A stretch of 64,000 nt of DNA, taken from Candidatus Woesearchaeota archaeon (GTDB taxonomy: Archaea; Nanobdellota; Nanobdellia; Woesearchaeales; UBA10216). Position numbers and translations under genes: made by a program. Of the stretch, positions 15,237 through 56,804 are shown in pieces. How positions within the stretch are numbered: the first letter of the stretch is position 1; every line of letters begins with the position of its first letter. The notes under the pieces were generated by a model that was not told the DNA's origin, made no database searches, and saw only the letters and a list, made by a program, of their open reading frames with translations. Location: contig JACPTF010000002.1 in NCBI GenBank assembly GCA_016192915.1, positions 131,530 to 195,529 on the forward strand, read 5' to 3'.

Positions 15237-15480
15237 CGAACTTTTTGTGTTACCCCTAACTTCTTTGGTTTCTTAATGCTATTTTTCTTGAGTAAGTGTT
15301 ACTAATAAGGCTATTAAAACTGCCACCAGTTAAGTAATTATAGCCTTTATTCGCTACAACTGTATTAAGTTAAAGCTTTGGCAGATGTTTAGCTGTGGCA
15401 GTCGCGGCTATGACGAAGGTTTTAAATAATAGTAACAACAACCGCCAGACCGCGTGCAATGATCGCGTGAACACCCTCTG

Positions 15481-15514
15481 ATGACCTTCTTAAGAAGAAG
15501 GTCAATCAAGAAAC
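15481..15514 (+). repeat. palindrome-plus-tail motif, copy M1 (TGACCTTCTT aag AAGAAGGTCA ATCAAGAAACT)
   Basis: 10-bp perfect arms. The same motif recurs at 20556, 23039 and 48612. Confidence 0.7.
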
Positions 15515-15653
15515 TCAAGAACAGACCTTTTTAAGACAAGGGCGATGAAGAACGGGAGTAACTGGAGAGCACGCAAATTTCATCCGCCCCCCTTTAAACA
15601 AAAAATTTATATTTGCCTTCCCTTAGGGGTAGCTTATTTCAGGGGACGTACAT

Positions 15654-16190
15654 ATGGTAGGGCCACAGGATGCAGAAAAAGAAGAAAAAAGGGTAATGGG
15701 TGAAGAAATAAAAGAATTTAAAGAGCTGGAAGAAGCCTTATCTTTATTGCGCAATGTTTACGATCGCTCTTCCAAATTTCACTTAACCGCGCCTGAGGAT
15801 GTACCCTTTCTTGAAAATGCAGCAAGGCTCTTGCGTCAAGCGGAAAACAGTGCTGCCAAAATAATAGCCTTTTCAACAAGGCTCAAAAATGACATATTCG
15901 CAATCCCGAAACCCACAAGCCACGTTGAAAGATACCTGCAAAGTGTAGCAAGTCAACTGCAAACTGCAAAAAATGCCGACGCACTCCTCACCAACATAAT
16001 TCACGCAGTGGATCACGCAATTTATTATTCCAAGCAAACAAGTCATACTTCTTACAATGTTTATAATGAGGAAGGAACTAATGGTTTCAAAGCAATGGAC
16101 CATGCGTATATGGAACTCGCGGCTTTAACTCAGGCAGTAAAACAATTATACGAGTTCGAACGCTGGCTCGATGCTGAACTTAAGAAATAA
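15654..16190 (+). CDS. hypothetical protein (178 aa)
   Basis: Intact ORF with a TATA-like AAATTTATATTTG about 35 bp upstream. Confidence 0.45.
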   Translation: MVGPQDAEKEEKRVMGEEIKEFKELEEALSLLRNVYDRSSKFHLTAPEDVPFLENAARLLRQAENSAAKIIAFSTRLKNDIFAIPKPTSHVERYLQSVASQLQTAKNADALLTNIIHAVDHAIYYSKQTSHTSYNVYNEEGTNGFKAMDHAYMELAALTQAVKQLYEFERWLDAELKK

Positions 16191-17479: not shown

Positions 17480-17504
17480 CTTTTTACATTATTTTCGTTT
17501 CCCA

Positions 17505-17627
17505 CGTCGCCATGCTGCGACGGGGCCCAATCGTGCTTTGCACGATTTGGGTTTGATGAACCCCAAGTCGCCTGTTGGCGACTGGGCCCAGTCGAGTTTT
17601 TCTCGACTTGGGCTTTTTCGGAAAAAG
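17505..17627. repeat. multi-hairpin repeat element, copy A (five tandem hairpins bracketed by GGG/CCC)
   Basis: CGTCGC/GCGACG, CCCAATCGTGC/GCACGATTTGGG, CCAAGTCGCC/GGCGACTGG, CCCAGTCGAG/CTCGACTTGGG and CTTTTTC/GAAAAAG. Three of these stems carry a single bulged A. Confidence 0.7.
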
Positions 17628-20485: not shown

Positions 20486-20555
20486 AAAAAAATCCCCCGA
20501 AATAAACAAAAAACTTAACTCCCGCAGCACAGCAGGTATATAAAGTTTATTGGCA

Positions 20556-20592
20556 TGACCTTCTTTGAAAAAGAAGGTCAATCAAGAAATCA
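20556..20592 (+). repeat. palindrome-plus-tail motif, copy M2 (TGACCTTCTT tgaaa AAGAAGGTCA ATCAAGAAATCA)
   Basis: Located immediately 3' of the tyrS stop. Confidence 0.7.
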
Positions 20593-20595
20593 CTT

Positions 20596-21672
20596 CTATC
20601 TTGTCACTTCAAAACTCCTGACCTGCTCCAGAAGCTTTTTTGCCTTAGAGTTTGTTGCAAAGTGCTTCCTAACAGGCTCCAAAAGCTCATTAAGCTTATC
20701 AGAAACAGCATTCTTCAGGTCCATTGGGTGAACTTTCCCTTCGGAGTAAAGCTTTTCCAGCTCGCTATAGCCGCCAACATTCAAGCTGCCGCCATACTTC
20801 TCAGCCCTCTTTATTTCAAGCGAATCAAATTTCTCAAAGACGATATAGCGGCAGTATTCCATGATGGGATTCTCGTCAACCTTCCTCTCAGGGCAGTAAG
20901 CCTTGCCGATTTTTCTTTTCACATCCTCTTCAGAGTCTGTCATGAAGATAGCAGTGTCAGGCTTTGACTTTGACATTTTCAAATCAAGCAGCCTGTCATC
21001 CGGGTCTTTGTAACTTGTTTTTGGCTCTCCTAAGCCAAGAATCATGTGGTGGCTTACCACAACCGGCTTCCAGAAGCCAAGCTTCGGCCCAACCTCCCTT
21101 GCAAGGATGTTGACTTTCCTCTGGTCTTTCCCCAGCTGGCAAATATCACATTTAAGATGGAAAATGTCGGCTGCTTGCATGCACGGGTAAATTATCTGTG
21201 CCGCGCTTAAACTCTCCGTGCTCCTCCTGCCCATAATCTGGCTTGTCCTTAAAATCCTCTGAACAGTAGATGCCCTCGCTATGTCAATCGTTGTCTTCCA
21301 GTGACCCTCTTGCCTTACCAAATCCTTTGACCAGATAAACTCAACGCCTTCTATATTCATACCACAGGCTTTCCATACTTCAATCAGGTAGTCCCCTGTA
21401 GTCCTTATCTTTTCCAAGTCGCCACCAAGCTTGTTGTTCATCCATGCGAACCAATCTGCAACAAGCATCTTGAATTTACAGCCTGCCTTTAGCATTTTGT
21501 TGACATTGATTGTTCTCAGAATCCCTTGGGCAATGTGTGCTCCTCCCGAAGGCTCAAAGCCGTCATACGCTATTGGGTGGTCCTTTGCCTCAAGAAGCTG
21601 CCTGAGCTCATCAACAGTTATTATCTCCTCTCCAACTTCTTTAATTACAGATAGCCTTTCCTCAATATCCAT
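20596..21672 (-). CDS. tyrS: tyrosyl-tRNA synthetase (archaeal/eukaryotic type); true ATG at 21672
   Basis: Has YDGFEPSG...HIAQG, KMSKS and KAYCP...NPIMEY...HPMDLKNAV, closely matching archaeal TyrRS. The first 46 codons of the ORF are extension. Confidence 0.9.
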   Translation of the reverse strand: MDIEERLSVIKEVGEEIITVDELRQLLEAKDHPIAYDGFEPSGGAHIAQGILRTINVNKMLKAGCKFKMLVADWFAWMNNKLGGDLEKIRTTGDYLIEVWKACGMNIEGVEFIWSKDLVRQEGHWKTTIDIARASTVQRILRTSQIMGRRSTESLSAAQIIYPCMQAADIFHLKCDICQLGKDQRKVNILAREVGPKLGFWKPVVVSHHMILGLGEPKTSYKDPDDRLLDLKMSKSKPDTAIFMTDSEEDVKRKIGKAYCPERKVDENPIMEYCRYIVFEKFDSLEIKRAEKYGGSLNVGGYSELEKLYSEGKVHPMDLKNAVSDKLNELLEPVRKHFATNSKAKKLLEQVRSFEVTR

Positions 21673-22777: not shown

Positions 22778-23041
22778 ATGGCAGAAGATGATAAAAAGTT
22801 CTCCAGGCAGGTTATTGGCAAGATTGTTGTAAGCAAATCAGGAAAAAGATTTGGCGAAGTTGCAGACATAGTGTTTGAAACTAAAACGGGAGAGCTGATT
22901 CACCTTGTCCTGGCGAACCCGACACCGTACATCCAGAAGCTGGAGCTTGAGCGGGATGGTGAAGGTAACATACTTATCCCCTTCAGCGCAGTAATGGCGA
23001 TGGGTGATTTCTTGGTTATATCTGAAGAAGACATTGTATGA
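22778..23041 (+). CDS. PRC-barrel domain protein
   Basis: About 87 aa with the small PRC beta-barrel pattern. Confidence 0.45.
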   Translation: MAEDDKKFSRQVIGKIVVSKSGKRFGEVADIVFETKTGELIHLVLANPTPYIQKLELERDGEGNILIPFSAVMAMGDFLVISEEDIV

Positions 23042-23073
23042 CCCTTTTAAGAAAAGAGGTCAATCAGAAAACT
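23039..23073 (+). repeat. palindrome-plus-tail motif, copy M3 (TGACCCTTTT aa GAAAAGAGGTCA ATCAGAAAACT)
   Basis: Slightly imperfect arms. Lies 12-45 bp upstream of the rfcS ATG. Confidence 0.6.
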
Positions 23074-23084
23074 AAACTACTTGT

Positions 23085-24107
23085 ATGTCAATCAAAAATA
23101 ATTCTTCTACGAAACCTTTATATTGCATTCCACCTCCCGCAATCGCAATGGACAGCGCGTTGTGGGCGGAGAAATACAGGCCTTCTAGTTTCAGGGATAT
23201 GATAGGCCAGGAAGACGTAGTAAAAAGACTGGAGGCGTTTGTCAAGCACCAGAATCTGCCGCACCTTCTTTTTGCGGGGCCGCCAGGGGTTGGCAAGACG
23301 TCAATGGCATTAGTAATAGCAAAACAGCTGTACAAGGGCGACTGGCGCCAGAACATTATTGAGCTTAACGCAAGCGATGAAAGAGGTATAGACATTATCA
23401 GAACCAAGGTTAAGGACTTTGCGCGCACCAAATCAATCGGGCAAGTGCCCTTCAAAATGTGCATCCTTGACGAATCAGACTCGCTAACAAGGGAGGCACA
23501 GCAGGCCCTTCGCAGAACAATGGAAAACTACACCTCAACATGCAGGTTCGTCCTGCTGGCCAATTACTCGTCTAAAATAATTGAGCCAATCCAGAGCAGA
23601 TGCGCGGTATTCAGGTTCAAGCCGCTTTCTGATTCTGAGATCATAAAAATAATTGAAACAGTGGCTGCTGCAGAAAACCTTGTTGTTGGCGATAAGGCAA
23701 GAAAAGCCCTTATTGAGGTCTCAGAAGGCGACTGCAGGAAGCTTGAGAACGTGCTGCAAAGCTGTGCAGTAATGTCCTCTGCAATAACAGAGGACCTGAT
23801 TTACGCAATAGCAAGCGTTGCAAGGCCAAAAGAGGTAAAGGAAGTGATTGAGCTGGCGTTTTCAAACAACTTTCAAAAGGCAAGGGACAAGCTTCTTGAA
23901 ACAATGCTTGCCCACGGCCTGTCTGGATTGGACATTATCAAGCAGCTGCAGAAAGAGGTACTCGACAGTGCCATAGAGCCTAAAAAGAAGCTCGCCCTGG
24001 TTGAAAAGTGCGGCGAGATAGAGTTCAGGATGAGCGAAGGCGCAGACGAGTTTGTGCAGCTTGAAGCCCTGTTGAGCCAAATCGCGCTCGCTGGGTTAAA
24101 AGAGTAG
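23085..24107 (+). CDS. rfcS: replication factor C small subunit
   Basis: Walker A GPPGVGKT, DEAD-like DESD, SRC motif (SRCAVFRF); 340 aa with no intein. Confidence 0.9.
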   Translation: MSIKNNSSTKPLYCIPPPAIAMDSALWAEKYRPSSFRDMIGQEDVVKRLEAFVKHQNLPHLLFAGPPGVGKTSMALVIAKQLYKGDWRQNIIELNASDERGIDIIRTKVKDFARTKSIGQVPFKMCILDESDSLTREAQQALRRTMENYTSTCRFVLLANYSSKIIEPIQSRCAVFRFKPLSDSEIIKIIETVAAAENLVVGDKARKALIEVSEGDCRKLENVLQSCAVMSSAITEDLIYAIASVARPKEVKEVIELAFSNNFQKARDKLLETMLAHGLSGLDIIKQLQKEVLDSAIEPKKKLALVEKCGEIEFRMSEGADEFVQLEALLSQIALAGLKE

Positions 24108-34363: not shown

Positions 34364-35605
34364 TCAGCCGCACTCCTCAGCTTTCCTGCAGTCAAGCTTG
34401 AGCTTGAGCTCAACTATGTTGAGGGTAGTTTCAGGAACCAGCCTGATGTAGTTTGTCCCGGCAACCAGGAAGGAATCAATGTTCTTGGAGTAATTCGCGG
34501 ATTTGGTGTCAATTCTTGTTTTCTGGTTGTTAATCTCAAGATTCGCGACCTTCCTCTCCTTGTCATCAACAAACATTATGGCAAGCGTTGAGTTCACCGT
34601 GTTATTCTCAATCCTCCTGAAAGTGGAGCTGTTTATGCTGAAGAAGTACAGCGGGAAGATTGGCTCCTTCAGCTTGGTCCTCAGGAGCAGCCTGTCAAGC
34701 AGGTAAGTTCCCTTCTCGGCAACAAACCTGAACTCGTTCTTCCCGGGAACAATGTCTTTTGGGTCAATCTGCAGCTTCTCCGGGCTGCCGCAGTCAGGCA
34801 CCTTGGAAGCCAAAAGCTTGCCGTTAACATAAGCCAAGAACTTGCCTACATCCTTCACGTTGCAGTCAACAAAGTAGCTCAGGCTTGCTTCAGACAGCAA
34901 GTCTGCCTCCTCCTGCCCTATTATCACTGCCTGGACAGCTTCCTTGTTGTCAATCAGTTCAACAGTGCCGGTTATCTTGGCATCCCTCAAGTCATAGAAA
35001 TTCTTTGAAAAAGGCTTGTACCACGGCACAGGGTCTGTGGAAAACTCGAACAGGTTTTCCTCTCTGAGATTAATGCTTAACGGCTCGGTAAAGCTGTCAA
35101 CCTCCCCCTCGAAAATCTCGTTATCATTTTGGGTTATTATAAGGTTTCCGCTATGGCTGGCCACACTGAAGCTGAGCTTTGCATTCTCAACCTTGTCCTT
35201 GACAGTCAAAATAACAGACCTTCTCTTATCAGAACTCCTTGCAGCTTCAACGTAAATAGAGTCAACGCTTTTCAAAACCGTATCCTCCTTCTTCGTAAAA
35301 AGGTTGAACGAAGGGAGCTTATGGTCAAATTCTGTTTCCTTAACCTTGGTAAGGGTGCCCGGCGATTCATCAAGCAAAACAGAGCCTCGAACAGCAGCAA
35401 GCACAGAAGACCCGCTGCCGGATGTGTCCTGTTCAAGAATTCTGTCTCGCTCGCTCTTGGGCAGGAACAGGATGTAAAGCAGGATAAAAGCACCAATCAC
35501 GAATACAAGAACAGCAGCATTGCCTCCTGATGGCTGCCCCTTTTTACTAAAATGCCTCATGCACTCTTCCTCAGTAGTTAGATATATAAATGTTTTTCCA
35601 TGCAC
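34364..35605 (-). CDS. membrane-anchored hypothetical protein
   Basis: An N-terminal TM helix (AAVLVFVIGAFILLYILFL) followed by a large soluble domain. Confidence 0.45.
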   Translation of the reverse strand: MHGKTFIYLTTEEECMRHFSKKGQPSGGNAAVLVFVIGAFILLYILFLPKSERDRILEQDTSGSGSSVLAAVRGSVLLDESPGTLTKVKETEFDHKLPSFNLFTKKEDTVLKSVDSIYVEAARSSDKRRSVILTVKDKVENAKLSFSVASHSGNLIITQNDNEIFEGEVDSFTEPLSINLREENLFEFSTDPVPWYKPFSKNFYDLRDAKITGTVELIDNKEAVQAVIIGQEEADLLSEASLSYFVDCNVKDVGKFLAYVNGKLLASKVPDCGSPEKLQIDPKDIVPGKNEFRFVAEKGTYLLDRLLLRTKLKEPIFPLYFFSINSSTFRRIENNTVNSTLAIMFVDDKERKVANLEINNQKTRIDTKSANYSKNIDSFLVAGTNYIRLVPETTLNIVELKLKLDCRKAEECG

Positions 35606-35613
35606 AACACGTA

Positions 35614-35806
35614 TTTGCCGGTTTTGGCAACCGCGTTGGCTGTTTTAGCTGCCATCGCAGCTATTGCAAATCGGGCATTGCCCGATTGCACACAGCATCG
35701 GCAAAGCCGATGCGCATAGTCGAGCTGATAGCTCGACTAGCTCAAACTATGAGTTTGAGCATAGGCAGCGTAACTGCCTATGTTCCGCTCATCGCGGAAT
35801 TGTGCC
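35614..35806. repeat. multi-hairpin repeat element, copy B (about 8 tandem hairpins) forming the region directly upstream of pelota
   Basis: TTGCAAATCGGGCA/TGCCCGATTGCA (bulged A), GCATCGGC/GCCGATGC, TAGTCGAGCT/AGCTCGACTA, GCTCAAACT/AGTTTGAGC, CATAGGCAG/CTGCCTATG, TTCCGC/GCGGAA, then the TTGTGCC tail. The terminal modules match the PolD and SufS copies. Confidence 0.75.
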
Positions 35807-35823
35807 GAAACAGGATTGCCCAA

Positions 35824-43008: not shown

Positions 43009-43034
43009 CTGCCAGCAATCTTTGAGTTAAAAAC

Positions 43035-44859: not shown

Positions 44860-44961
44860 TTTTGTTTGCCCCAGTGACGATTTTTTAAGCTGGAGGTTCC
44901 AAAAAATTTATATATCGCTGCAGGGATAGTTGCAGGCTTAAGTGTTTATTGTTTTTGGAAG

Positions 44962-45246
44962 GTGAGCTTTATGCTGAGGACAAAAAGGGTTAGAGAAACT
45001 TATGATATGAGGGTTTTTACCGATACGGGCGATTACTTTGGCGATGTTGAGGAAGCCCTCATGACCCAGACCAAGGTCATAGGCTGGCGTGTCAAAGCCA
45101 CCAGAAACTCTGTTCTGAGCAAGCTCTTGGGCAGCGCTAAGGGCGTTGTAGTCCCGCATCAGCTGGTCAAGTCCGTTGGGGACGTCATGATAATTTCCAA
45201 GGCGGCGATGCCAAGCTACACTGGAGAAGAGCCGGTTGGTGTTTAG
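44962..45246 (+). CDS. PRC-barrel domain protein (second)
   Basis: Small beta-barrel pattern similar to 22778..23041. Confidence 0.4.
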   Translation: MSFMLRTKRVRETYDMRVFTDTGDYFGDVEEALMTQTKVIGWRVKATRNSVLSKLLGSAKGVVVPHQLVKSVGDVMIISKAAMPSYTGEEPVGV

Positions 45247-47871: not shown

Positions 47872-48612
47872 ATGCCGAACATAAAGGAATTAACAACCAA
47901 GATAGAAAATATCATCACATATTCGGAAAACCTCAGGGTTCTCAGGCTCAGGCTTCCTGAAGGCAGCGGCTTTTCGTTTGTTCCAGGCCAGTTTGTGATG
48001 GTTTCCCTTCCAGGCCTTGCTGACGCCAATGGCAGAAAGATAGCAAAGGCTTACTCTATAGCATCCTCTCCATCACAAAGTGGCATTCTTGAGCTTTGCA
48101 TAGTAAGCTACCCAGCGGGCGCCCTGTCCCCGAAGGTGTTCCAGAAAAACATCGGTGACGAGGTTGTTGTGACAGGGCCTTACGGCGTATTTCAGCTTAA
48201 GCAGCCTGTCCACCCAGGCACTGTTTTTATGGCTGGAGGCACAGGCCTTGCCCCTCTGATTAGCATGCTTAGGTCGCTTTATGCTGAAGGCTACAAGGAA
48301 AAGTTGTGGCTTTTTTACAGTGCCAGCGAGCCAAAGCTGTTCCTGTTCAGGGAAGAGATTCTCGGATACGCTAAACATAATAACCTGCAGCTTGTTGTTT
48401 CAACCAGCAATGGCAACTCTGAATGGGTGTGGGAAAAGGGAAGGGTAACCGAGACGTTCCCTAAACACCTGCAGCAGCTGCAGCAGGACGGCGTTCCAAA
48501 TGAGGAAAGGCAGTTTTACATCTGCGGCCCTCCGCTAATGGTCACTGATACAGTAAAAATGCTGCTTGAGCTCGGCTTCAAAAAGGAGAACATCCACAAG
48601 GAGCAGTGGTAG
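47872..48612 (+). CDS. FNR-family FAD/NAD(P)-binding oxidoreductase
   Basis: RAYSIAS FAD motif and GGTGLAP NAD(P) motif; 246 aa. Confidence 0.7.
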   Translation: MPNIKELTTKIENIITYSENLRVLRLRLPEGSGFSFVPGQFVMVSLPGLADANGRKIAKAYSIASSPSQSGILELCIVSYPAGALSPKVFQKNIGDEVVVTGPYGVFQLKQPVHPGTVFMAGGTGLAPLISMLRSLYAEGYKEKLWLFYSASEPKLFLFREEILGYAKHNNLQLVVSTSNGNSEWVWEKGRVTETFPKHLQQLQQDGVPNEERQFYICGPPLMVTDTVKMLLELGFKKENIHKEQW

Positions 48613-48644
48613 AACCTTTTTAACAAAAAGGTTCATCAAAAACT
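48612..48644 (+). repeat. palindrome-plus-tail motif, copy M4 (GAACCTTTTT aac AAAAAGGTTC ATCAAAAACT)
   Basis: Between the convergent FNR-like and nth genes. Confidence 0.6.
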
Positions 48645-49275
48645 ACATCTGCTTTGCAACCCCATTCTTCGGGCACAAGTTGTTGAGCATGCACTTGCTG
48701 CAAAAGGGAACTGGCGCCCTGCACACAGCCCTGCCGTGGTCTTTGAGCAGCCACGTTATCCTTTTCCACTCTGGCTTGGGAACGATTGCCATAAGGTCTT
48801 TTTCTATCTTTTCGGGATTGGTGTTTTTTGTCAGTCCAAGGCGGTAGCTCAATCGGATTACGTGGGTGTCCACGGTAATTCCGAGCACTTTACCGAAGGC
48901 GTTAATCAGGATGGCATTCGCTGTCTTTCTTCCAATCCCTGGCAGCGATGTCAGCTCTTCCATTGTTTCAGGAACTTTCCCATTGTGCTTGTTAACAAGC
49001 AGCTTTGCTGCTTCCCTGATGTTTTTTGCCTTGTTGTTGAAGAACGTGATTGACTTTATGTCGTCTTCCTTTAGTTTTGTGAAGTCTGCAGCTGTTTTGT
49101 ACTTTTGAAATAATTTAGTCGTTGCGGCATTGACAACCTCATCGCGGCATTGCGCTGACAGAATAGCTGCCACCATGAGCTGCAGAGGGTTTGAGAAGCT
49201 CAGGTAGTACTTTGAGTTTGGATACTCTTTTTTCAAAATTCTTATTGCATCTTCGGCATTTGCTGCGATTGTCAC
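48643..49275 (-). CDS. nth: endonuclease III (Nth) DNA glycosylase/AP lyase
   Basis: HhH-GPD motif (LPGIGRKTA) and C-terminal 4Fe-4S Cys cluster C-x6-C-x2-C-x5-C. Confidence 0.85.
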   Translation of the reverse strand: MTIAANAEDAIRILKKEYPNSKYYLSFSNPLQLMVAAILSAQCRDEVVNAATTKLFQKYKTAADFTKLKEDDIKSITFFNNKAKNIREAAKLLVNKHNGKVPETMEELTSLPGIGRKTANAILINAFGKVLGITVDTHVIRLSYRLGLTKNTNPEKIEKDLMAIVPKPEWKRITWLLKDHGRAVCRAPVPFCSKCMLNNLCPKNGVAKQM

Positions 49276-53270: not shown

Positions 53271-56200
53271 TTAAACTTCGCACTTGCTGAATCCGCAGTC
53301 CTCGTTGAGGCAGGAGTGGCAGCCGTTTTCTATCTTCAGTGTTTTCTTGCCGCATGATTGGCAGTTGCTGAGCTTCATGTCTGAAGCATAAATCTCCTTG
53401 CCGTTTCCATGCGCTTCGTGAGTTTCTTTTTTTTCAGCTGCAACAGCCACTGTTGCGAGAGGTTCGCTTACAAAATTATCCACGGCCTTTGTGAAGAGGT
53501 ACCTGTTGCCTTCCTTTTTCAGCAGGCCATTTCTCAAGGCGTGGTATGCGGTGGTGAGCCTGCCGTTTGGGAGCCCTATGACATCGTCTCCGTGAAGCAG
53601 CTTTTGCTCGCCGTCAATCTCGACATCGTGGATTTGCTCTTTGCTGTCTTGGAACTCAGACTCGTGGGTTTCTGTGCTTAGTATGGGGAATCTTGAGCCT
53701 TCCCTGTATATGGTTATGCCCTTGAGCCCGTGCTTCCAGGCATCAAGGTAAATGTTTGATATTGTTTCCGGGTCAATGTCCTCTGGCAGGTTGACTGTTG
53801 AGGAGATGCTGTGGTCTATGTATTTCTGCCATAGCCCCTGCACCACCACTCTTTTGCTCGGGTCTATGAAGTGCGCTGTCCTGAAGAAGTGCGCTGGCAA
53901 TATTCGCTTCAGCTCTTCAGCATCCTTGCATTTCTGGGCTTCTTCAGCCAGGTTGTGCTGCTGTATGTAGCCGTCAACTGTAGAGTGGAATATTTTGAAG
54001 AACATGTTGCTCCCCCCTGAGCTGAGGCCCTCTGACCTTCTGGTGTAGTAAAGGGCAAACACAGGCTCTATCCCCCCGCTTACTCCGATAAAGTTCCTGT
54101 CTCCAAGCCTGTAGCCAAGCACTATGTTTGATATTGTCCCTGTTGGGGCTATTGAGAGTATTGCGACGTTTCTGAGCCCTTTCTTCCTTATCGTTTCTTT
54201 CGTCTCATCAGTTAGTATTTCCTGGAAGAACCTTCCCCTGCTGTATGCCTCATACTCGAATATTGGCGATGGCGTTTTTTCCTCTGCCAGCTCAGCTGAT
54301 GCGTCGTATGCAGTGTTTGCGAAAAGCTTTGCGGCTTCTTCGAGTATCTTTATCCCTTTTTCGCTGTCATACCCTGTTCCGAGCTGGTTGAGCATGTCTG
54401 CTATGCCCATAACGCCAAGCCCGAGCCTTCTTGTTTCGTAAGCTGCCTTTCTTTGCTTTTCAAGCGGATTTAGAAGCTCGTTCCACGTTACAACATTGTC
54501 AAGGAACCTTACAGACAGTGCTGTTGTGTCCTTAATGCCTTCCCAGTCTATCCCTGCATTGTCCGTATATCCGTTCACAACAAACCTTGACAAGTTTACT
54601 GAAGCCAGGTTGCACGCCCCTCCGTCTTCAAGAGGAACCTCTCCGCAGTTGTGCACGACGATGCCGTTGGCTATGAAAGAGTGCGTTATTGGCTCTTGCA
54701 GGTCATAAACTTCTTTTAACCCATTAGCGTTTATGCTGCTAATGTTGTCATATGTGCTCCTGCCTTCTCTATTTGTTAAAATTTTGTTGCCGGCAGTAAG
54801 ATTCCTGGCTTCTGCCCAACCCCCGGTCGTCATTACCTTATGGTCTTTAGTGCATACCAGTTCAAAACCCTTCTGTGTTGTTATTTTCAGCGTGTCCTTC
54901 TCTCCTGTTTTAATTGCGGCAGCTATGGGAAGTAATATTTTGCCCTCTAGTACTAAGCCGTTGCCTGGCAGCATCCTGGCATCTACAGCCACATTTACCC
55001 CGCCATTGCCGTAGTTTTCAGCAATTTCCTTAATTGTCATGATTCCATTATCTGTTTCTATTTTGGTGTCGCCAGCAACGCAAGGGTTTGTGCTGGCTAT
55101 CGGCCTTCCGACGTAGTTGGATGGCGAATACTTTACCATGGTGCTCCAGAATATGAGCCCTGGCTCAGCTGTCTTGTAGTTTCCCTCTATGAATGCGTTC
55201 CATATTGTCCTTGCCTTTACCAGGCGCTTTATCTCGCCTGTTTCCCTTGCGTTATAGTAAAGCATGAAGTCCCCTGCGTGCTTTATGGCAAGGTCGAATT
55301 CTGAGCTCCTGTCATGTACTACGAAATCCCCAAACATGTCCCTTTTTGACACATCAGTGAGGTCTTTCTCTGTTATTGCCTCTGAGTTGTGCCCTGTAAG
55401 GAAGCTGTTAAGCTCTTCAAAGGTATCAAATGCCTTCATCAGCCTGTACTTTTCTATTGGCTTTGCAGGAATTCCATACGAATAGTGCACTGCCCCGCCC
55501 TGCATGATTCCGAGTCCTGATACGCTTTTGTCTTTCAGGTAGACGAGTACCTTTTCTGTGCCGTATTTGTTCTGCTCTTCTACTGCCTGCATGAACTCAT
55601 CAGTTACTTTCAGGCTGATATTGGCAAACCTGACCTGCGTGTTCTCCCTTACCTGCCGTTCTACGTCCCTTAGCTGCTGCTCGTTGAACTTGCCTGACCA
55701 TTTGCACTGCTCCACTATCTGGTTTGTTACCCAGTTCGGTACCTTCTTCACGTTGATGAAGTGCGGGCTGTCAGGGTGCTTTATGTCAATCGTCAGCATC
55801 AATGCCCCCCTTCTTCCTGACTGGCCAATCAGCCCTGTTGTTAATGAAAATAATTCCATGAATGAAACGCTTCCTGTTGACGTATCTGCAGCATTATGGA
55901 CTATCGAGCCCTTCGGCCTCAACCCAGAGATGTCCACCCCGATGCCCCCTCCATAGGAGTATGTCCTTGCGCATTCATACGCAGACTGGTATATGGCTTC
56001 TATATTATCCTCTGAAATCAGTGATACAAAGCAGTTTGCCAGTGTCTTCAGCCTGTAAAGGTCCCCCCCGCCTGCTATGACCCTGCCTCCCGGCACAAAA
56101 TAGCCCTCGTACAATGCCCTGTAGAATCTTGCAGCCCACTCCCTTTGCTTTTCTGGCGTTGGCTCAACAGCGGCCATGAAGGCAGCCAGCCTTGAGTAAA

Positions 56201-56804
56201 CGTCTTCCGGCCTTTTCTCTATCAGCTTGTTGTTGATGTCCTTAAGGTAGTATTTTTTCTGGAATATGCTGGTTGCCAGCTCGTTGCCGTTAAGGTAGTC
56301 TCCTGGGTGTAGGGGCAGTTCGCCTGTCTTTTGCAGTTCCTTAATGTAGAATAGAAGGTTCTTGTATGCCTCAATCCTGTCATATCCTATGATTGATGCG
56401 AGCTTGCTTTTGTGTGCGAACATGTCAAGCAGCGCTGTCTTTTCCCCATCAGTCCCTTTTGCTGCCTCTGTCGCAGCCTGCCTTAGCTCTGCCCTTTTAG
56501 CCCTGTAAAGTATGTATGCTTTTGCGGTTTTTGCGTGGCCTTCTTCTATGAGTACTTTTTCAACAGCATCCTGTATTTCTTCAACTGATGGCAGCTTTTC
56601 TATTTTTGCCACATAATCAACAACAAGCCTTGTGAGCCTTTCTGCCTCTTTCCTGTCGCTTCCTCCAACAGCCCTTGCGGCTTTCATTATGGCAGATGTT
56701 ATCTTTTCAGGGTCAAAATCAGCCACCCTTCCGTCCCTCTTTACAATCTTGGAAACTTTTGTAACTATTACAGTTTTCCCCGTTTCAGAAGCCTTTGGTG
56801 TCAT
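53271..56804 (-). CDS. nrdJ: ribonucleoside-diphosphate/triphosphate reductase, class II-like (ATP-cone, NPCGE active site, C-terminal Zn ribbon), interrupted by a mini-intein
   Basis: N-terminal ATP cone (VKRDGRVADFDPEKI) and active-site STNP|C...HN|CGEVPL split by an intein. C-terminal CxxC...CxxC. PduO and NrdR lie directly downstream. Confidence 0.85.
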   Translation of the reverse strand: MTPKASETGKTVIVTKVSKIVKRDGRVADFDPEKITSAIMKAARAVGGSDRKEAERLTRLVVDYVAKIEKLPSVEEIQDAVEKVLIEEGHAKTAKAYILYRAKRAELRQAATEAAKGTDGEKTALLDMFAHKSKLASIIGYDRIEAYKNLLFYIKELQKTGELPLHPGDYLNGNELATSIFQKKYYLKDINNKLIEKRPEDVYSRLAAFMAAVEPTPEKQREWAARFYRALYEGYFVPGGRVIAGGGDLYRLKTLANCFVSLISEDNIEAIYQSAYECARTYSYGGGIGVDISGLRPKGSIVHNAADTSTGSVSFMELFSLTTGLIGQSGRRGALMLTIDIKHPDSPHFINVKKVPNWVTNQIVEQCKWSGKFNEQQLRDVERQVRENTQVRFANISLKVTDEFMQAVEEQNKYGTEKVLVYLKDKSVSGLGIMQGGAVHYSYGIPAKPIEKYRLMKAFDTFEELNSFLTGHNSEAITEKDLTDVSKRDMFGDFVVHDRSSEFDLAIKHAGDFMLYYNARETGEIKRLVKARTIWNAFIEGNYKTAEPGLIFWSTMVKYSPSNYVGRPIASTNPCVAGDTKIETDNGIMTIKEIAENYGNGGVNVAVDARMLPGNGLVLEGKILLPIAAAIKTGEKDTLKITTQKGFELVCTKDHKVMTTGGWAEARNLTAGNKILTNREGRSTYDNISSINANGLKEVYDLQEPITHSFIANGIVVHNCGEVPLEDGGACNLASVNLSRFVVNGYTDNAGIDWEGIKDTTALSVRFLDNVVTWNELLNPLEKQRKAAYETRRLGLGVMGIADMLNQLGTGYDSEKGIKILEEAAKLFANTAYDASAELAEEKTPSPIFEYEAYSRGRFFQEILTDETKETIRKKGLRNVAILSIAPTGTISNIVLGYRLGDRNFIGVSGGIEPVFALYYTRRSEGLSSGGSNMFFKIFHSTVDGYIQQHNLAEEAQKCKDAEELKRILPAHFFRTAHFIDPSKRVVVQGLWQKYIDHSISSTVNLPEDIDPETISNIYLDAWKHGLKGITIYREGSRFPILSTETHESEFQDSKEQIHDVEIDGEQKLLHGDDVIGLPNGRLTTAYHALRNGLLKKEGNRYLFTKAVDNFVSEPLATVAVAAEKKETHEAHGNGKEIYASDMKLSNCQSCGKKTLKIENGCHSCLNEDCGFSKCEV
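54648..55082 (-). other. mini-intein (145 aa, no homing endonuclease domain) within RNR
   Basis: Starts CVAGDTKIE (block A), has TKDH (block B) and ends ...GIVVHN followed by Cys +1. The host motif NP-CGE is restored after splicing. Confidence 0.8.

Follow-up and report, generated by a model that had tools for sequence, protein, structure and literature searches.

A structure-constrained miniature repeat with a mirror-image purine tail, dispersed through genomes of uncultured groundwater archaea

The closest described relatives of the repeat examined here appear, by analogy, to be the potential intrastrand-triplex repeats of enterobacteria and cyanobacteria, known under the equivalent names BoxC, PIT elements and TMECO (Hoyne & Maher 2000/2002; Holder et al. 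2015, PMC4666352). Repeats of this kind have been searched for with ITxF, whose criteria are a stem of 6-15 triads and loops of 1-6 nucleotides (nt), and TMECO has the consensus CCCTCNCCC-N3-6-GGGNGAGGG-N3-GGGNGAGGG (PMC4666352). In tests, the bacterial potential-triplex repeats displayed no promoter or terminator activity, and they have been linked to local genomic instability (PMC4666352). Here we describe a non-coding element of ~30-40 nt, comprising a hairpin and a purine tail, that is present in four copies in a 64,000-nt stretch of DNA from Candidatus Woesearchaeota archaeon (contig JACPTF010000002.1, positions 131,530 to 195,529; hereafter the window) and in many more copies in related archaea. 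Natural triple-helix sequences backed by covariation are rare, and most candidate triplex repeats are argued from composition alone.

Like BoxC/PIT/TMECO, the element is a short, dispersed, mostly intergenic repeat in which a pyrimidine block, a purine block and a second, fold-back purine block follow one another on one strand (class II, with class IV on the complementary strand). Also shared are occurrence in either gene orientation with no tie to the function of neighbouring genes, deletions and rearrangements at the loci between relatives, and the lack of a known mobilising enzyme. TMECO is G/C-rich, with 9-nt blocks and loops of 3 nt and 3-6 nt, whereas the present element is A/T-rich and offers 5-6 triads. 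It further differs from TMECO in an extra Watson-Crick clamp (xxACC/GGTxx) below the triplex tract, in an invariant ATC linker, in its archaeal host, and in its occurrence within tRNA introns and in frame within coding sequence. Its third block has covariation support at five positions, for which we know of no counterpart reported for TMECO. Another parallel is found in the recurrent G-quadruplex/C-track repeats of Methanomicrobiaceae, which form a hairpin or an antiparallel triplex in vitro (PMC8044849). Those repeats are likewise archaeal, intergenic and highly repeated, with a purine third strand possible on a hairpin; unlike the present element they are G-rich and quadruplex-competing, come from another lineage, share no sequence with it, and have no described covariation of clamp or tail (PMC8044849).

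The element also resembles the REP/RAYT repeats and the IS200/IS605 PATEs, with which it shares 20-40 nt palindromes bearing an asymmetric conserved flank at the hairpin foot, copy numbers of tens to hundreds, frequent location directly after stop codons, and no regular target duplication. REP sequences are imperfect palindromes of 20-40 nt with GT(A/G)G at the 5' foot, and the gene for the RAYT (a Y1 HUH protein) is typically REP-flanked. Unlike REP, the present element has its conserved flank, ATC(A), at the 3' foot (TGAT at the 5' foot on the other strand) rather than GTAG, the covarying partner of its tail is the stem itself, and a 5' flank of GC/A (the slash marking the element's edge) is found in only ~63% of copies. 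IS200/IS605-type ends have a subterminal hairpin, enter without duplication on the 3' side of a fixed 4-5 nt target, and belong with tnpA/tnpB; their single-stranded hairpins are reportedly recognised through base triples together with guide-like pairing, as is said of the work of Barabas et al. in 2008 and Guynet et al. in 2009. Clean filled/empty pairs of the present element show no target duplication, which would suit that type, and the GC/A flank has only the frequency just given. Small palindromic selfish repeats are also known as Rickettsia RPE, which lie in frame in protein and RNA genes, and as mycobacterial MIRU, which occupy operon spacers and overlap stop and start codons. The element is comparable to both in being a small palindromic repeat, and differs in that RPE and MIRU are 40-150 bp long, bacterial, unrelated in sequence and without a triplex-type tail. 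Overall the element behaves much as the selfish palindromes of the REP, RPE and MIRU types do, while lacking the features that define them.

Family, hairpin anatomy and the mirror rule of the tail

We scanned one genome per species with the pattern GACCYYYTT-N0-8-AARRRGGTCAATCA, in which arm complementarity was not forced and the tail after ATCA was left free. This returned at least 109 stretches, mostly from ~15 related archaeal metagenome bins; loci sampled from the scanned genomes and metagenomes are given L-numbers below and amount to ~860 kb around copies. A relaxed search of these loci and the window extended the collection to at least 128 copies; one bin alone accounts for at least 23 loci of the scan. 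The four-copy repeat noted by the first-pass annotation proved to be a genuine family. The bins are labelled Ca. Woesearchaeota (NC_groundwater_435/437/268/269/292 and nzgw63), "uncultured Methanosarcinales" (two binchicken bins), Aenigmatarchaeota and "uncultured archaeon". Nearest to the window is NC_groundwater_435, labelled Candidatus Woesearchaeota, with 90% identity over 4.9 kb; identity to the others is ~70-80%. The element is present dozens of times per genome in this group of uncultured groundwater archaea. Searches of the window and 19 loci against Rfam at gathering thresholds identified only tRNAs and one lysine riboswitch, leaving the element unmatched, and a literature search on its sequence found no relevant report.

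The consensus reads gcA, TGACC TTYTT, a loop of 2-7 nt, AARAA GGTCA, ATC and ARAAA (A)CG. Its parts, in order, are (gc)A, a two-base clamp, ACC, a pyrimidine tract of 4-6 nt, the loop, the purine tract, GGT, the other side of the clamp, ATC, the tail and (A)CG. ACC, GGT and ATC are invariant in 122 of 122 aligned copies, an invariance that for ATC is partly one of ascertainment, the searches having required it; among 132 hairpins found without that requirement, all but about five carry ATC. Along the stem, 99.2% of cells are paired and 6 of the 10 pairs have changed on both sides. The outer two pairs vary and are fully compensated, occurring as TG/CA, CA/TG, CG/CG, AA/TT and GA/TC. At the ELP3 insertion described below and at the empty site of L087, the flanking GC is native to the target.

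The asymmetric tail, to which attention had been drawn as a conserved part, follows a simple rule. If the left arm is numbered p1-p10 and the tail from t1 onward, t4-t8 complements p6-p10 when both are read 5' to 3', and is hence the mirror image of the purine arm. The common tract TTTTT (p6 onward) is accompanied by the tail ATCAAAAAA, TTCTT by ATCAAGAAA (31 copies), and TCTTT by ATCAGAAAA (9 among the 99 non-orthologous copies, 8 in the variant listing of at least 128). CTTTT is found with ATCGAAAA in 4 copies and with ATCCAAAA in 7, CCTTT with ATCGGAAAA in 7, and TTTTCTT with ATCAAAAGAA in a single copy. Position by position, a T-A pair at p7 is matched by A at t5 in 114 of 114 cases and a C-G pair by G in 14 of 14; for p8 and t6 the corresponding counts are 97 of 97 and 31 of 31; at p6 and t4, T-A goes with A in 108 of 108, and the CC variant carries GG in 7 of 7; and the only C-G case at p10 carries G at t8. 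The parallel mapping is complementary in 98.1% of cells, and all four tested pairs changed on both sides, in 55 cells compared with 0-7 in slid controls. Pairing of the tail with the left arm in the antiparallel sense, as in an ordinary hairpin, was rejected: it covaries only at the symmetric centre and breaks elsewhere in the variants.

From this mapping it was predicted beforehand that a variant with C at p9 would carry G at t7. A scan in which the tail played no part identified a sole metagenome match with C at p9, GACCTTTCTT-aga-AAGAAAGGTCA-ATCAAAGAAAAAG in L111, and the tail base is G as predicted, so that all five tail positions follow the mirror rule. In each of the seven variant types, the tail has changed at the position predicted by the parallel mapping, out of about eight possible, and in six of the seven to the predicted base. 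In the T4 copy of L051, tract and tail are shortened together. With ~130 copies, seven variant types, a position-by-position rule and one predicted variant, the family offers a test case for in vivo selection of intramolecular triplexes.

H-DNA and intrastrand triplexes are defined, at the level of sequence, by a purine tract whose mirror image stands beside the duplex to which the tract belongs. On the strand given here, the tail would lie antiparallel to the purine arm and form A.A-T and G.G-C triads (the class II purine motif); on the complementary strand, a 5' pyrimidine tail would lie parallel to the purine arm and form T.A-T and C+.G-C triads (class IV; definitions in PMC4666352). For p7-p10, A stands at the T-A levels and G at the C-G levels, the exception to the triad restriction being seven copies with C at t4. 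The presence of A, never T, at T-A levels may fit slightly better the stricter pyrimidine motif of the complementary strand, which is also RNA-capable. Compared with the sizes sought by ITxF, the element falls short, usually providing five and sometimes six triads, and its second "loop", GGTxxATC, is 8 nt long with 5 nt paired. That a triplex actually forms is something we infer from the sequence.

At 2380-2450 of L111 (metagenome contig Ga0247727_10035475), two elements in opposite orientation stand tail to tail directly after a tRNA anticodon loop; one is the variant with C at p9, and the other has the GAACC/GGTTC clamp also seen in copy 4 of the window.

Placement in genomes, gain and loss

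Among the 99 non-orthologous copies, 43 lie between tandem genes (intergenic background 43.8 kb), 20 between divergent genes (22.2 kb) and 7 between convergent genes (14.8 kb); a further 9 are inside tRNA genes, 9 overlap long open reading frames (ORFs) and 11 are at locus edges. The class counts parallel the intergenic background, and the distribution therefore follows the available space. The first-pass annotation had named random genome-wide placement relative to genes as one finding that would refute its reading, and such placement is roughly what the tandem, divergent and convergent classes display. In about 18 of the 99 copies, a long ORF takes its stop codon from the TGA of the hairpin; on the opposite strand, many ORFs end in the TCA of GGTCA or ATCA.

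Nine copies occupy tRNA introns at the canonical 37/38 position, in both orientations, and in L009 and L059 the 38-nt intron is essentially the element alone. In the plus orientation (6 tRNAs) the hairpin begins directly after the 7-nt anticodon loop, and in the minus orientation it ends exactly at the 3' exon. Another 12 copies lie 0-5 nt from mature tRNA ends, and in every tRNA case the contacting side is the hairpin, never the tail. The Rfam tRNA model spans the L009 gene at full length despite the element. With intron detection, ARAGORN called 41 tRNA genes as against 11 without it (~860 kb, bacterial loci included); many of the introns called are 32-96 nt long and canonically placed, and a few calls of 700-1300 nt are probably false. 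The element also explains several annotation oddities of these bins: unusual stop codons, ORFs extended too far and "extra" tRNA introns.

The neighbours are unrelated housekeeping genes: their 150 proteins matched 189 Pfam families, and in that Pfam search no transposase recurred. Orientation relative to GC skew is split 54:45 (p = 0.13), on which basis a replication-linked orientation was rejected; there is a mild bias of 64:35 toward the A-rich strand that may track the coding strand (GC skew against coding-strand bias, r = 0.73). Three further proposals were also set aside: the "GCAT" flank as an opposite-strand start codon (not a general rule, most such ORFs being 3-30 codons long), Shine-Dalgarno mimicry by AGGT beside ATG (rejected on spacing by inspection), and likeness to hammerhead, C/D-box or H/ACA RNAs (by inspection, CUGAUGA occurs in copy 1 only and is absent from the family consensus). 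Taken together, the element is indifferent to gene orientation and function, and is tolerated where an insertion of ~35 nt is harmless, in spacers, introns and a surface loop of ELP3.

Comparison of orthologous sites revealed an array of differences between genomes. The orthologous convergent gene pair of L021 lacks copy 4 of the window; the site is a net 28 nt shorter there, and 2 nt separate the two stop codons. L002 has a 30-nt in-frame insertion where the site in L087 is empty. In two genomes the gene for ELP3, an essential radical-SAM tRNA-modification enzyme, contains the element in frame (LPSS-MTFFDKKVNQKND-CGS), giving a 15-residue insertion relative to the solved Elp3 of M. infernus. 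The insertion separates two conserved segments, LPxS and RESDLEGLKELF; the two ELP3 copies share the DNA hairpin and differ in the loop, hence in the peptide. Decayed remnants were also identified at orthologous sites (the window versus L105, L098 and L005, and the window versus L021). Where both orthologs retain a copy, clamp, tract and tail can differ together, always in compensated fashion (L073 versus L035, L006 versus L062 and L070, and copy 3 versus L027). The family is structure-constrained, and its members are gained, lost and degraded between related genomes.

A general target-site duplication was rejected, with only 4 of 99 copies above the 99% control and clean filled/empty pairs showing no duplication. 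A miniature inverted-repeat transposable element (MITE) was likewise rejected: no duplication of fixed length occurs in the filled/empty pairs, and no related insertion sequence was found among the neighbours. In L039, L071, L091, L099 and L108, the element lies within a gene or tRNA, a few codons or 11 nt from its start. The 5' end of that gene is duplicated, so that an intact version follows the element, and the upstream repeat ends exactly at the hairpin (L039 2390-2450; L091; L108; L071; L099 190-300). The lack of regular duplications and the preference for a preceding GC resemble single-strand (HUH-type) transposition, and the tail arrays and the long duplications of variable size bear more likeness to the outcome of stalled replication with a switch of template at a non-B structure, by analogy with what has been discussed for bacterial triplex repeats (PMC4666352). 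Three complete elements in tandem, with a 53-nt period, were seen at ~4900-5060 of L100, and tail-only repeats comprise a 15-nt unit present three times in L040 and a 12-nt unit present three to four times in L031 and L103.

Readings of the element

We consider it rather probable that the four sites of the window are copies of a structure-constrained, mobile or formerly mobile miniature element of the potential-triplex-repeat kind, and not a dedicated terminator, promoter or operator. Among the explanations first proposed for the repeat, a small dispersed element is the one the evidence favours, and the early judgement that it is not a generic terminator hairpin is borne out by the 20 copies in divergent spacers, the tRNA-intron and coding copies and the mirror tail. 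Selection would act to keep a fold of hairpin plus third strand, formed in single-stranded DNA or in complementary-strand RNA, most likely because machinery for propagation or maintenance recognises this fold on single-stranded nucleic acid. Movement would proceed through single-stranded intermediates, preferentially 3' of GC and without regular target duplication, and the TGA/TCA stop codons and T-tracts donated to neighbouring genes would be incidental effects. If so, small-genome archaea would gain their own REP-like or PIT-like selfish element, with a bearing on the origin of archaeal tRNA introns and of short protein insertions.

Several observations weigh against this reading. One sub-variant with C-G at p6 (7 copies) has C instead of G at t4, a non-canonical base at the predicted position. 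With only about seven variant types, part of the stem-tail association is descent from a few founder copies. No more than 5-6 triads are possible, and the 3-nt ATC linker must span a 5-bp clamp. Flanking duplications accompany five copies only and are long and variable (11-39 nt), and we know of no transposase that makes duplications of such length and variability. No mobilising enzyme was recognised, with no RAYT, TnpA or TnpB in the ~860 kb around copies; a tblastn search of the same DNA with three Y1 transposase queries gave zero matches. Intact orthologous copies persist in genomes that are ~75% identical in their genes, which could mean a host function. Finally, the locus sample was drawn from among the matches listed and seeded by our own pattern, and the gene calls are crude ORF calls, supplemented by ARAGORN for tRNAs.

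As an extension of the mobile-element reading, Hoogsteen-type pairing of a single-stranded purine or pyrimidine tract, as third strand, with the hairpin stem might serve the element or its enzyme as a programmable recognition code, directing processing of the element or its insertion beside matching A-rich tracts; we regard this as unlikely. If true, guidance by a triplex would play the part that guide/target pairing plays in IS200/IS605, in DPANN-type archaea and perhaps in Oscillospiraceae with the same core.

Quite unlikely, in our estimation, is that the repeat is a host-beneficial site for a structure-specific protein (of the nucleoid, of replication, or of RNA stability or processing) kept by purifying selection rather than by mobility. 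Such a site would be in keeping with the 122-of-122 invariance of ACC, GGT and ATC, itself partly a product of the search requirement for ATC, and with copies that remain near consensus across genomes ~70-80% identical in coding DNA. Orthologous copies that differ only by fully compensated changes (L073 versus L035; L006 versus L062/L070) point the same way, as does the strong tendency of copies to lie within 0-1 nt of either end of a tRNA or of the intron site in the anticodon loop. It is less easily reconciled with presence/absence polymorphism, decayed remnants and the loss of a copy in the window itself, with insertion into coding sequence, with placement in either gene orientation without any link to gene function, or with the unbiased orientation to GC skew (54:45). 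A double-stranded protein-binding site, among the options first suggested, is not supported: clamp and stem change by compensatory substitutions, and no symmetry of DNA reading explains a tail that obeys the mirror rule.

A bidirectional intrinsic transcription terminator or 3'-end signal, with T/C-rich tracts on both strands recruited behind genes, seems to us very unlikely. Archaeal RNA polymerase halts at oligo-T tracts, and the TTTTT variant has a T5 run on one strand, with T6 and T5 runs on its complement; the donated TGA stops (~18 of 99), the many opposite-strand stops in the TCA of ATCA or GGTCA, and the position of copies 2-4 of the window beside stop codons, copy 4 between convergent genes, are what a terminator would lead one to expect. 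The T-run is broken, however, in the TTCTT and TCTTT variants, the convergent FNR-like/nth pair of L021 does without the element, and neither the covariation of the clamp nor the mirror tail is explained. The 20 copies between divergent genes, in a class distribution that tracks spacer DNA, the 9 tRNA-intron copies, which occur in both orientations at a place where termination would do harm, and the in-frame copies within ELP3 and another ORF argue further against it. An archaeal oligo-T intrinsic terminator would have its T-run on the non-template strand just behind a gene's 3' end, at a point where transcription must stop; T-tracts are present, but the divergent, tRNA-intron and two coding-sequence copies do not have that placement. 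The suggestion of an RNA 3'-end or processing signal is not supported, given the same copies and the occurrence of the element in either orientation relative to transcription.

Less probable still is an intron-like RNA element, tolerated or spread through excision during tRNA processing by the splicing endonuclease, RNase P or RNase Z. The element-only 38-nt introns of L009 and L059, the exact abutment of the hairpin on the anticodon loop (plus orientation, 6 tRNAs) or on the 3' exon (minus orientation), the full-length Rfam match across L009, and the 12 copies adjoining mature tRNA ends would suit it. Against these stand the majority of copies, which lie in plain spacers, and the two insertions in coding sequence, which are in frame and multiples of three (45 and 30 nt), as if translated and not spliced. 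A canonical bulge-helix-bulge motif (BHB) consists of two 3-nt bulges on opposite strands with a 4-bp helix between them, at the exon-intron junctions. By inspection, no canonical BHB with the element hairpin as inner helix could be drawn for L009 or L104, where GGTCA is not followed by the four nucleotides that would pair with positions 32-35 and the bulge on the 3' side would have to measure 8-10 nt. Broad-specificity endonucleases may cut relaxed motifs at the element-bearing tRNA introns.

Least probable of all is a structurally idle tail whose mirror pattern is a coincidence of subfamily co-inheritance, which the ~7 types of near-identical copies, as in founder-derived subfamilies, and the "wrong" base of one type (ATCC) would allow, but which leaves unexplained that all seven types change at the predicted position and six of them to the predicted base, that the prediction of the p9/t7 case preceded its observation, that tract and tail shorten together in the T4 copy of L051, and that orthologous copies switch stem and tail together.

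The window copies and neighbouring features

The four copies reported by the first-pass annotation were confirmed by inspection, by a hairpin scan and by the family profile. Perfect hairpins of at least 10 pairs number four in the 64-kb window, three of which are copies 1, 2 and 4, with perfect stems of 10-11 bp and 3-nt loops; the stem of copy 3 is imperfect. The profile of the wider family retrieved exactly these four copies from the window, all on the plus strand (p = 1/8), with E = 6e-11 to 4e-7 (Table 1). Folded as single-stranded DNA, the four hairpins give -6.5 to -10.2 kcal/mol (z = -3.6 to -5.6), copy 1 giving -9.6 kcal/mol (z = -4.6), and the tails are unpaired in the ViennaRNA folds, a model that covers Watson-Crick pairs only. 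Copy 1 is a TTCTT variant, the right arm and tail of copy 3 are those of the TCTTT variant, and copy 4 is a GAACC/GGTTC clamp variant with one A missing. At the copy-less site, L105, L098 and L005 hold an intact copy between two co-oriented genes.

Table 1. Coordinates of the element, its remnants and related sites (window positions unless a locus is named)
Feature	Position	Strand	Sequence or state	Support
Copy 1	15482-15514	+	hairpin 15482-15504, TGACCTTCTT-aag-AAGAAGGTCA; ATC linker and mirror purine tail 15505-15514, ATCAAGAAAC	profile E = 6e-11
Copy 2	20556-20590	+	11-bp hairpin 20556-20580, 3-nt loop, then ATCAAGAAAT	profile E = 5.5e-8
Copy 3	23039-23072	+	imperfect hairpin 23039-23062 (TGACCCTTTT / AAAAGAGGTCA), then ATCAGAAAAC	profile E = 1.5e-7
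Copy 4	48612-48644	+	hairpin 48612-48634, GAACCTTTTT-aac-AAAAAGGTTC, then ATCAAAAAC	profile E = 3.7e-7
Decayed copy	15524-15552	+	GACCTTTTTAAG-ACAAGGGCGATGAAGAA, directly 3' of copy 1	23/30 identical to family consensus; weak nhmmer match
Remnant	44951-44970	-	right arm and tail, AAAGCTCACCTTCCAAAAAC; left arm and loop deleted	intact ortholog copy in L021
Orthologous copy-less site	43009-43034	-	unrelated 26 nt replaces hairpin; only AAAAAC(TT) kept	
ELP3 element sites	L069 7906-7939, continuing into L002 (contig JACPIJ010000004.1); L087 57-90			

Pfam upheld the gene names assigned earlier, identifying trm5/TYW2, two TldD/PmbA genes, tyrS, a PRC-barrel protein, rfcS, an FNR-like reductase and nth, and the surroundings of the copies are as first noted, with copy 1 lying 245 nt past the trm5/TYW2 stop and copies 2-4 at stop codons. 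Copy 2 lies between the tyrS stop (20596-20598, minus strand), 5 nt from the end of its tail, and the TATA box of a TldD/PmbA gene (20537-20544, minus strand). The first three bases of copy 3 are the TGA stop codon of the PRC-barrel gene, and copy 4 is squeezed between the convergent stops of the FNR-like gene (TAG, 48610-48612) and nth (48643-48645). Copy 3 had also been thought to overlap the rfcS promoter, a view that depended on an over-extended ORF start at 23085. Upon closer inspection, the true rfcS start is most likely ATG 23148 (MDSALWAEKYRP...), with a TATA box at 23116-23124 (CTTTATATT). The ortholog L027 shares both and has a TTTTT-variant copy at the same place; copy 3 therefore lies ~45 nt upstream of the rfcS promoter and outside it.

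Copy 1 and its decayed neighbour are contained in a 417-nt gap (15237-15653) that gave no Rfam match even in a permissive scan and whose small ORFs are unconvincing. A TATA-like TTTATATT near 15607 probably serves the gene starting at 15654, and a scan for bacterial-type promoters and terminators around copy 1 gave no result.

Gut and rumen bins of Clostridia/Oscillospiraceae contain the same core, GACCTTTTT-gaa-AAAAAGGTCAATCAAAAACTTT, many times (shared stretch GACCTTTTT-gaa-AAAAAGGTCAATCAAAAAC), represented by loci L011, L013, L018, L025, L044, L047, L068, L072, L074, L082, L084, L088 and L110. The bacterial core usually stands just 3' of a GC-rich hairpin; in bin RGIG5511 it is within a longer repeat of ~100 nt, and in L044 it extends to a full palindrome with 22-bp arms (AAAGTTTTTGATTGACC...GGTCAATCAAAAACTTT). 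No stem variants of this core were seen in the sampled loci, and homology and convergence are both possible.

A second, unrelated family consists of short perfect hairpins in tandem arrays, for example CCCAATCGTGC-ttt-GCACGATTTGG and CCAAGTCGCC-tgtt-GGCGACTGGG, at 17502-17611 and 35601-35822 of the window, at ~1800-1870 of L022, and in L043. The latter window array places six or more such hairpins in ~220 nt between a TATA box (~35582) and a likely true start at ATG 35825; the corresponding site is occupied by a triplex-tail element in L073 and by no more than TGCATAAG in L035. Direct junctions between the two hairpin families (ATCAAA-CCCAAATCGTGAGCGCACGATTGGG...) occur in L022 and L043.

Elsewhere, the ribonucleotide reductase encoded at 1043-4558 of L051 gives a match to an intein splicing domain (PF14890, E = 1.2e-12), and its ortholog in the window, the 1177-residue ORF at 53271-56804, which is 78% identical to it at the DNA level, probably also carries the intein domain.

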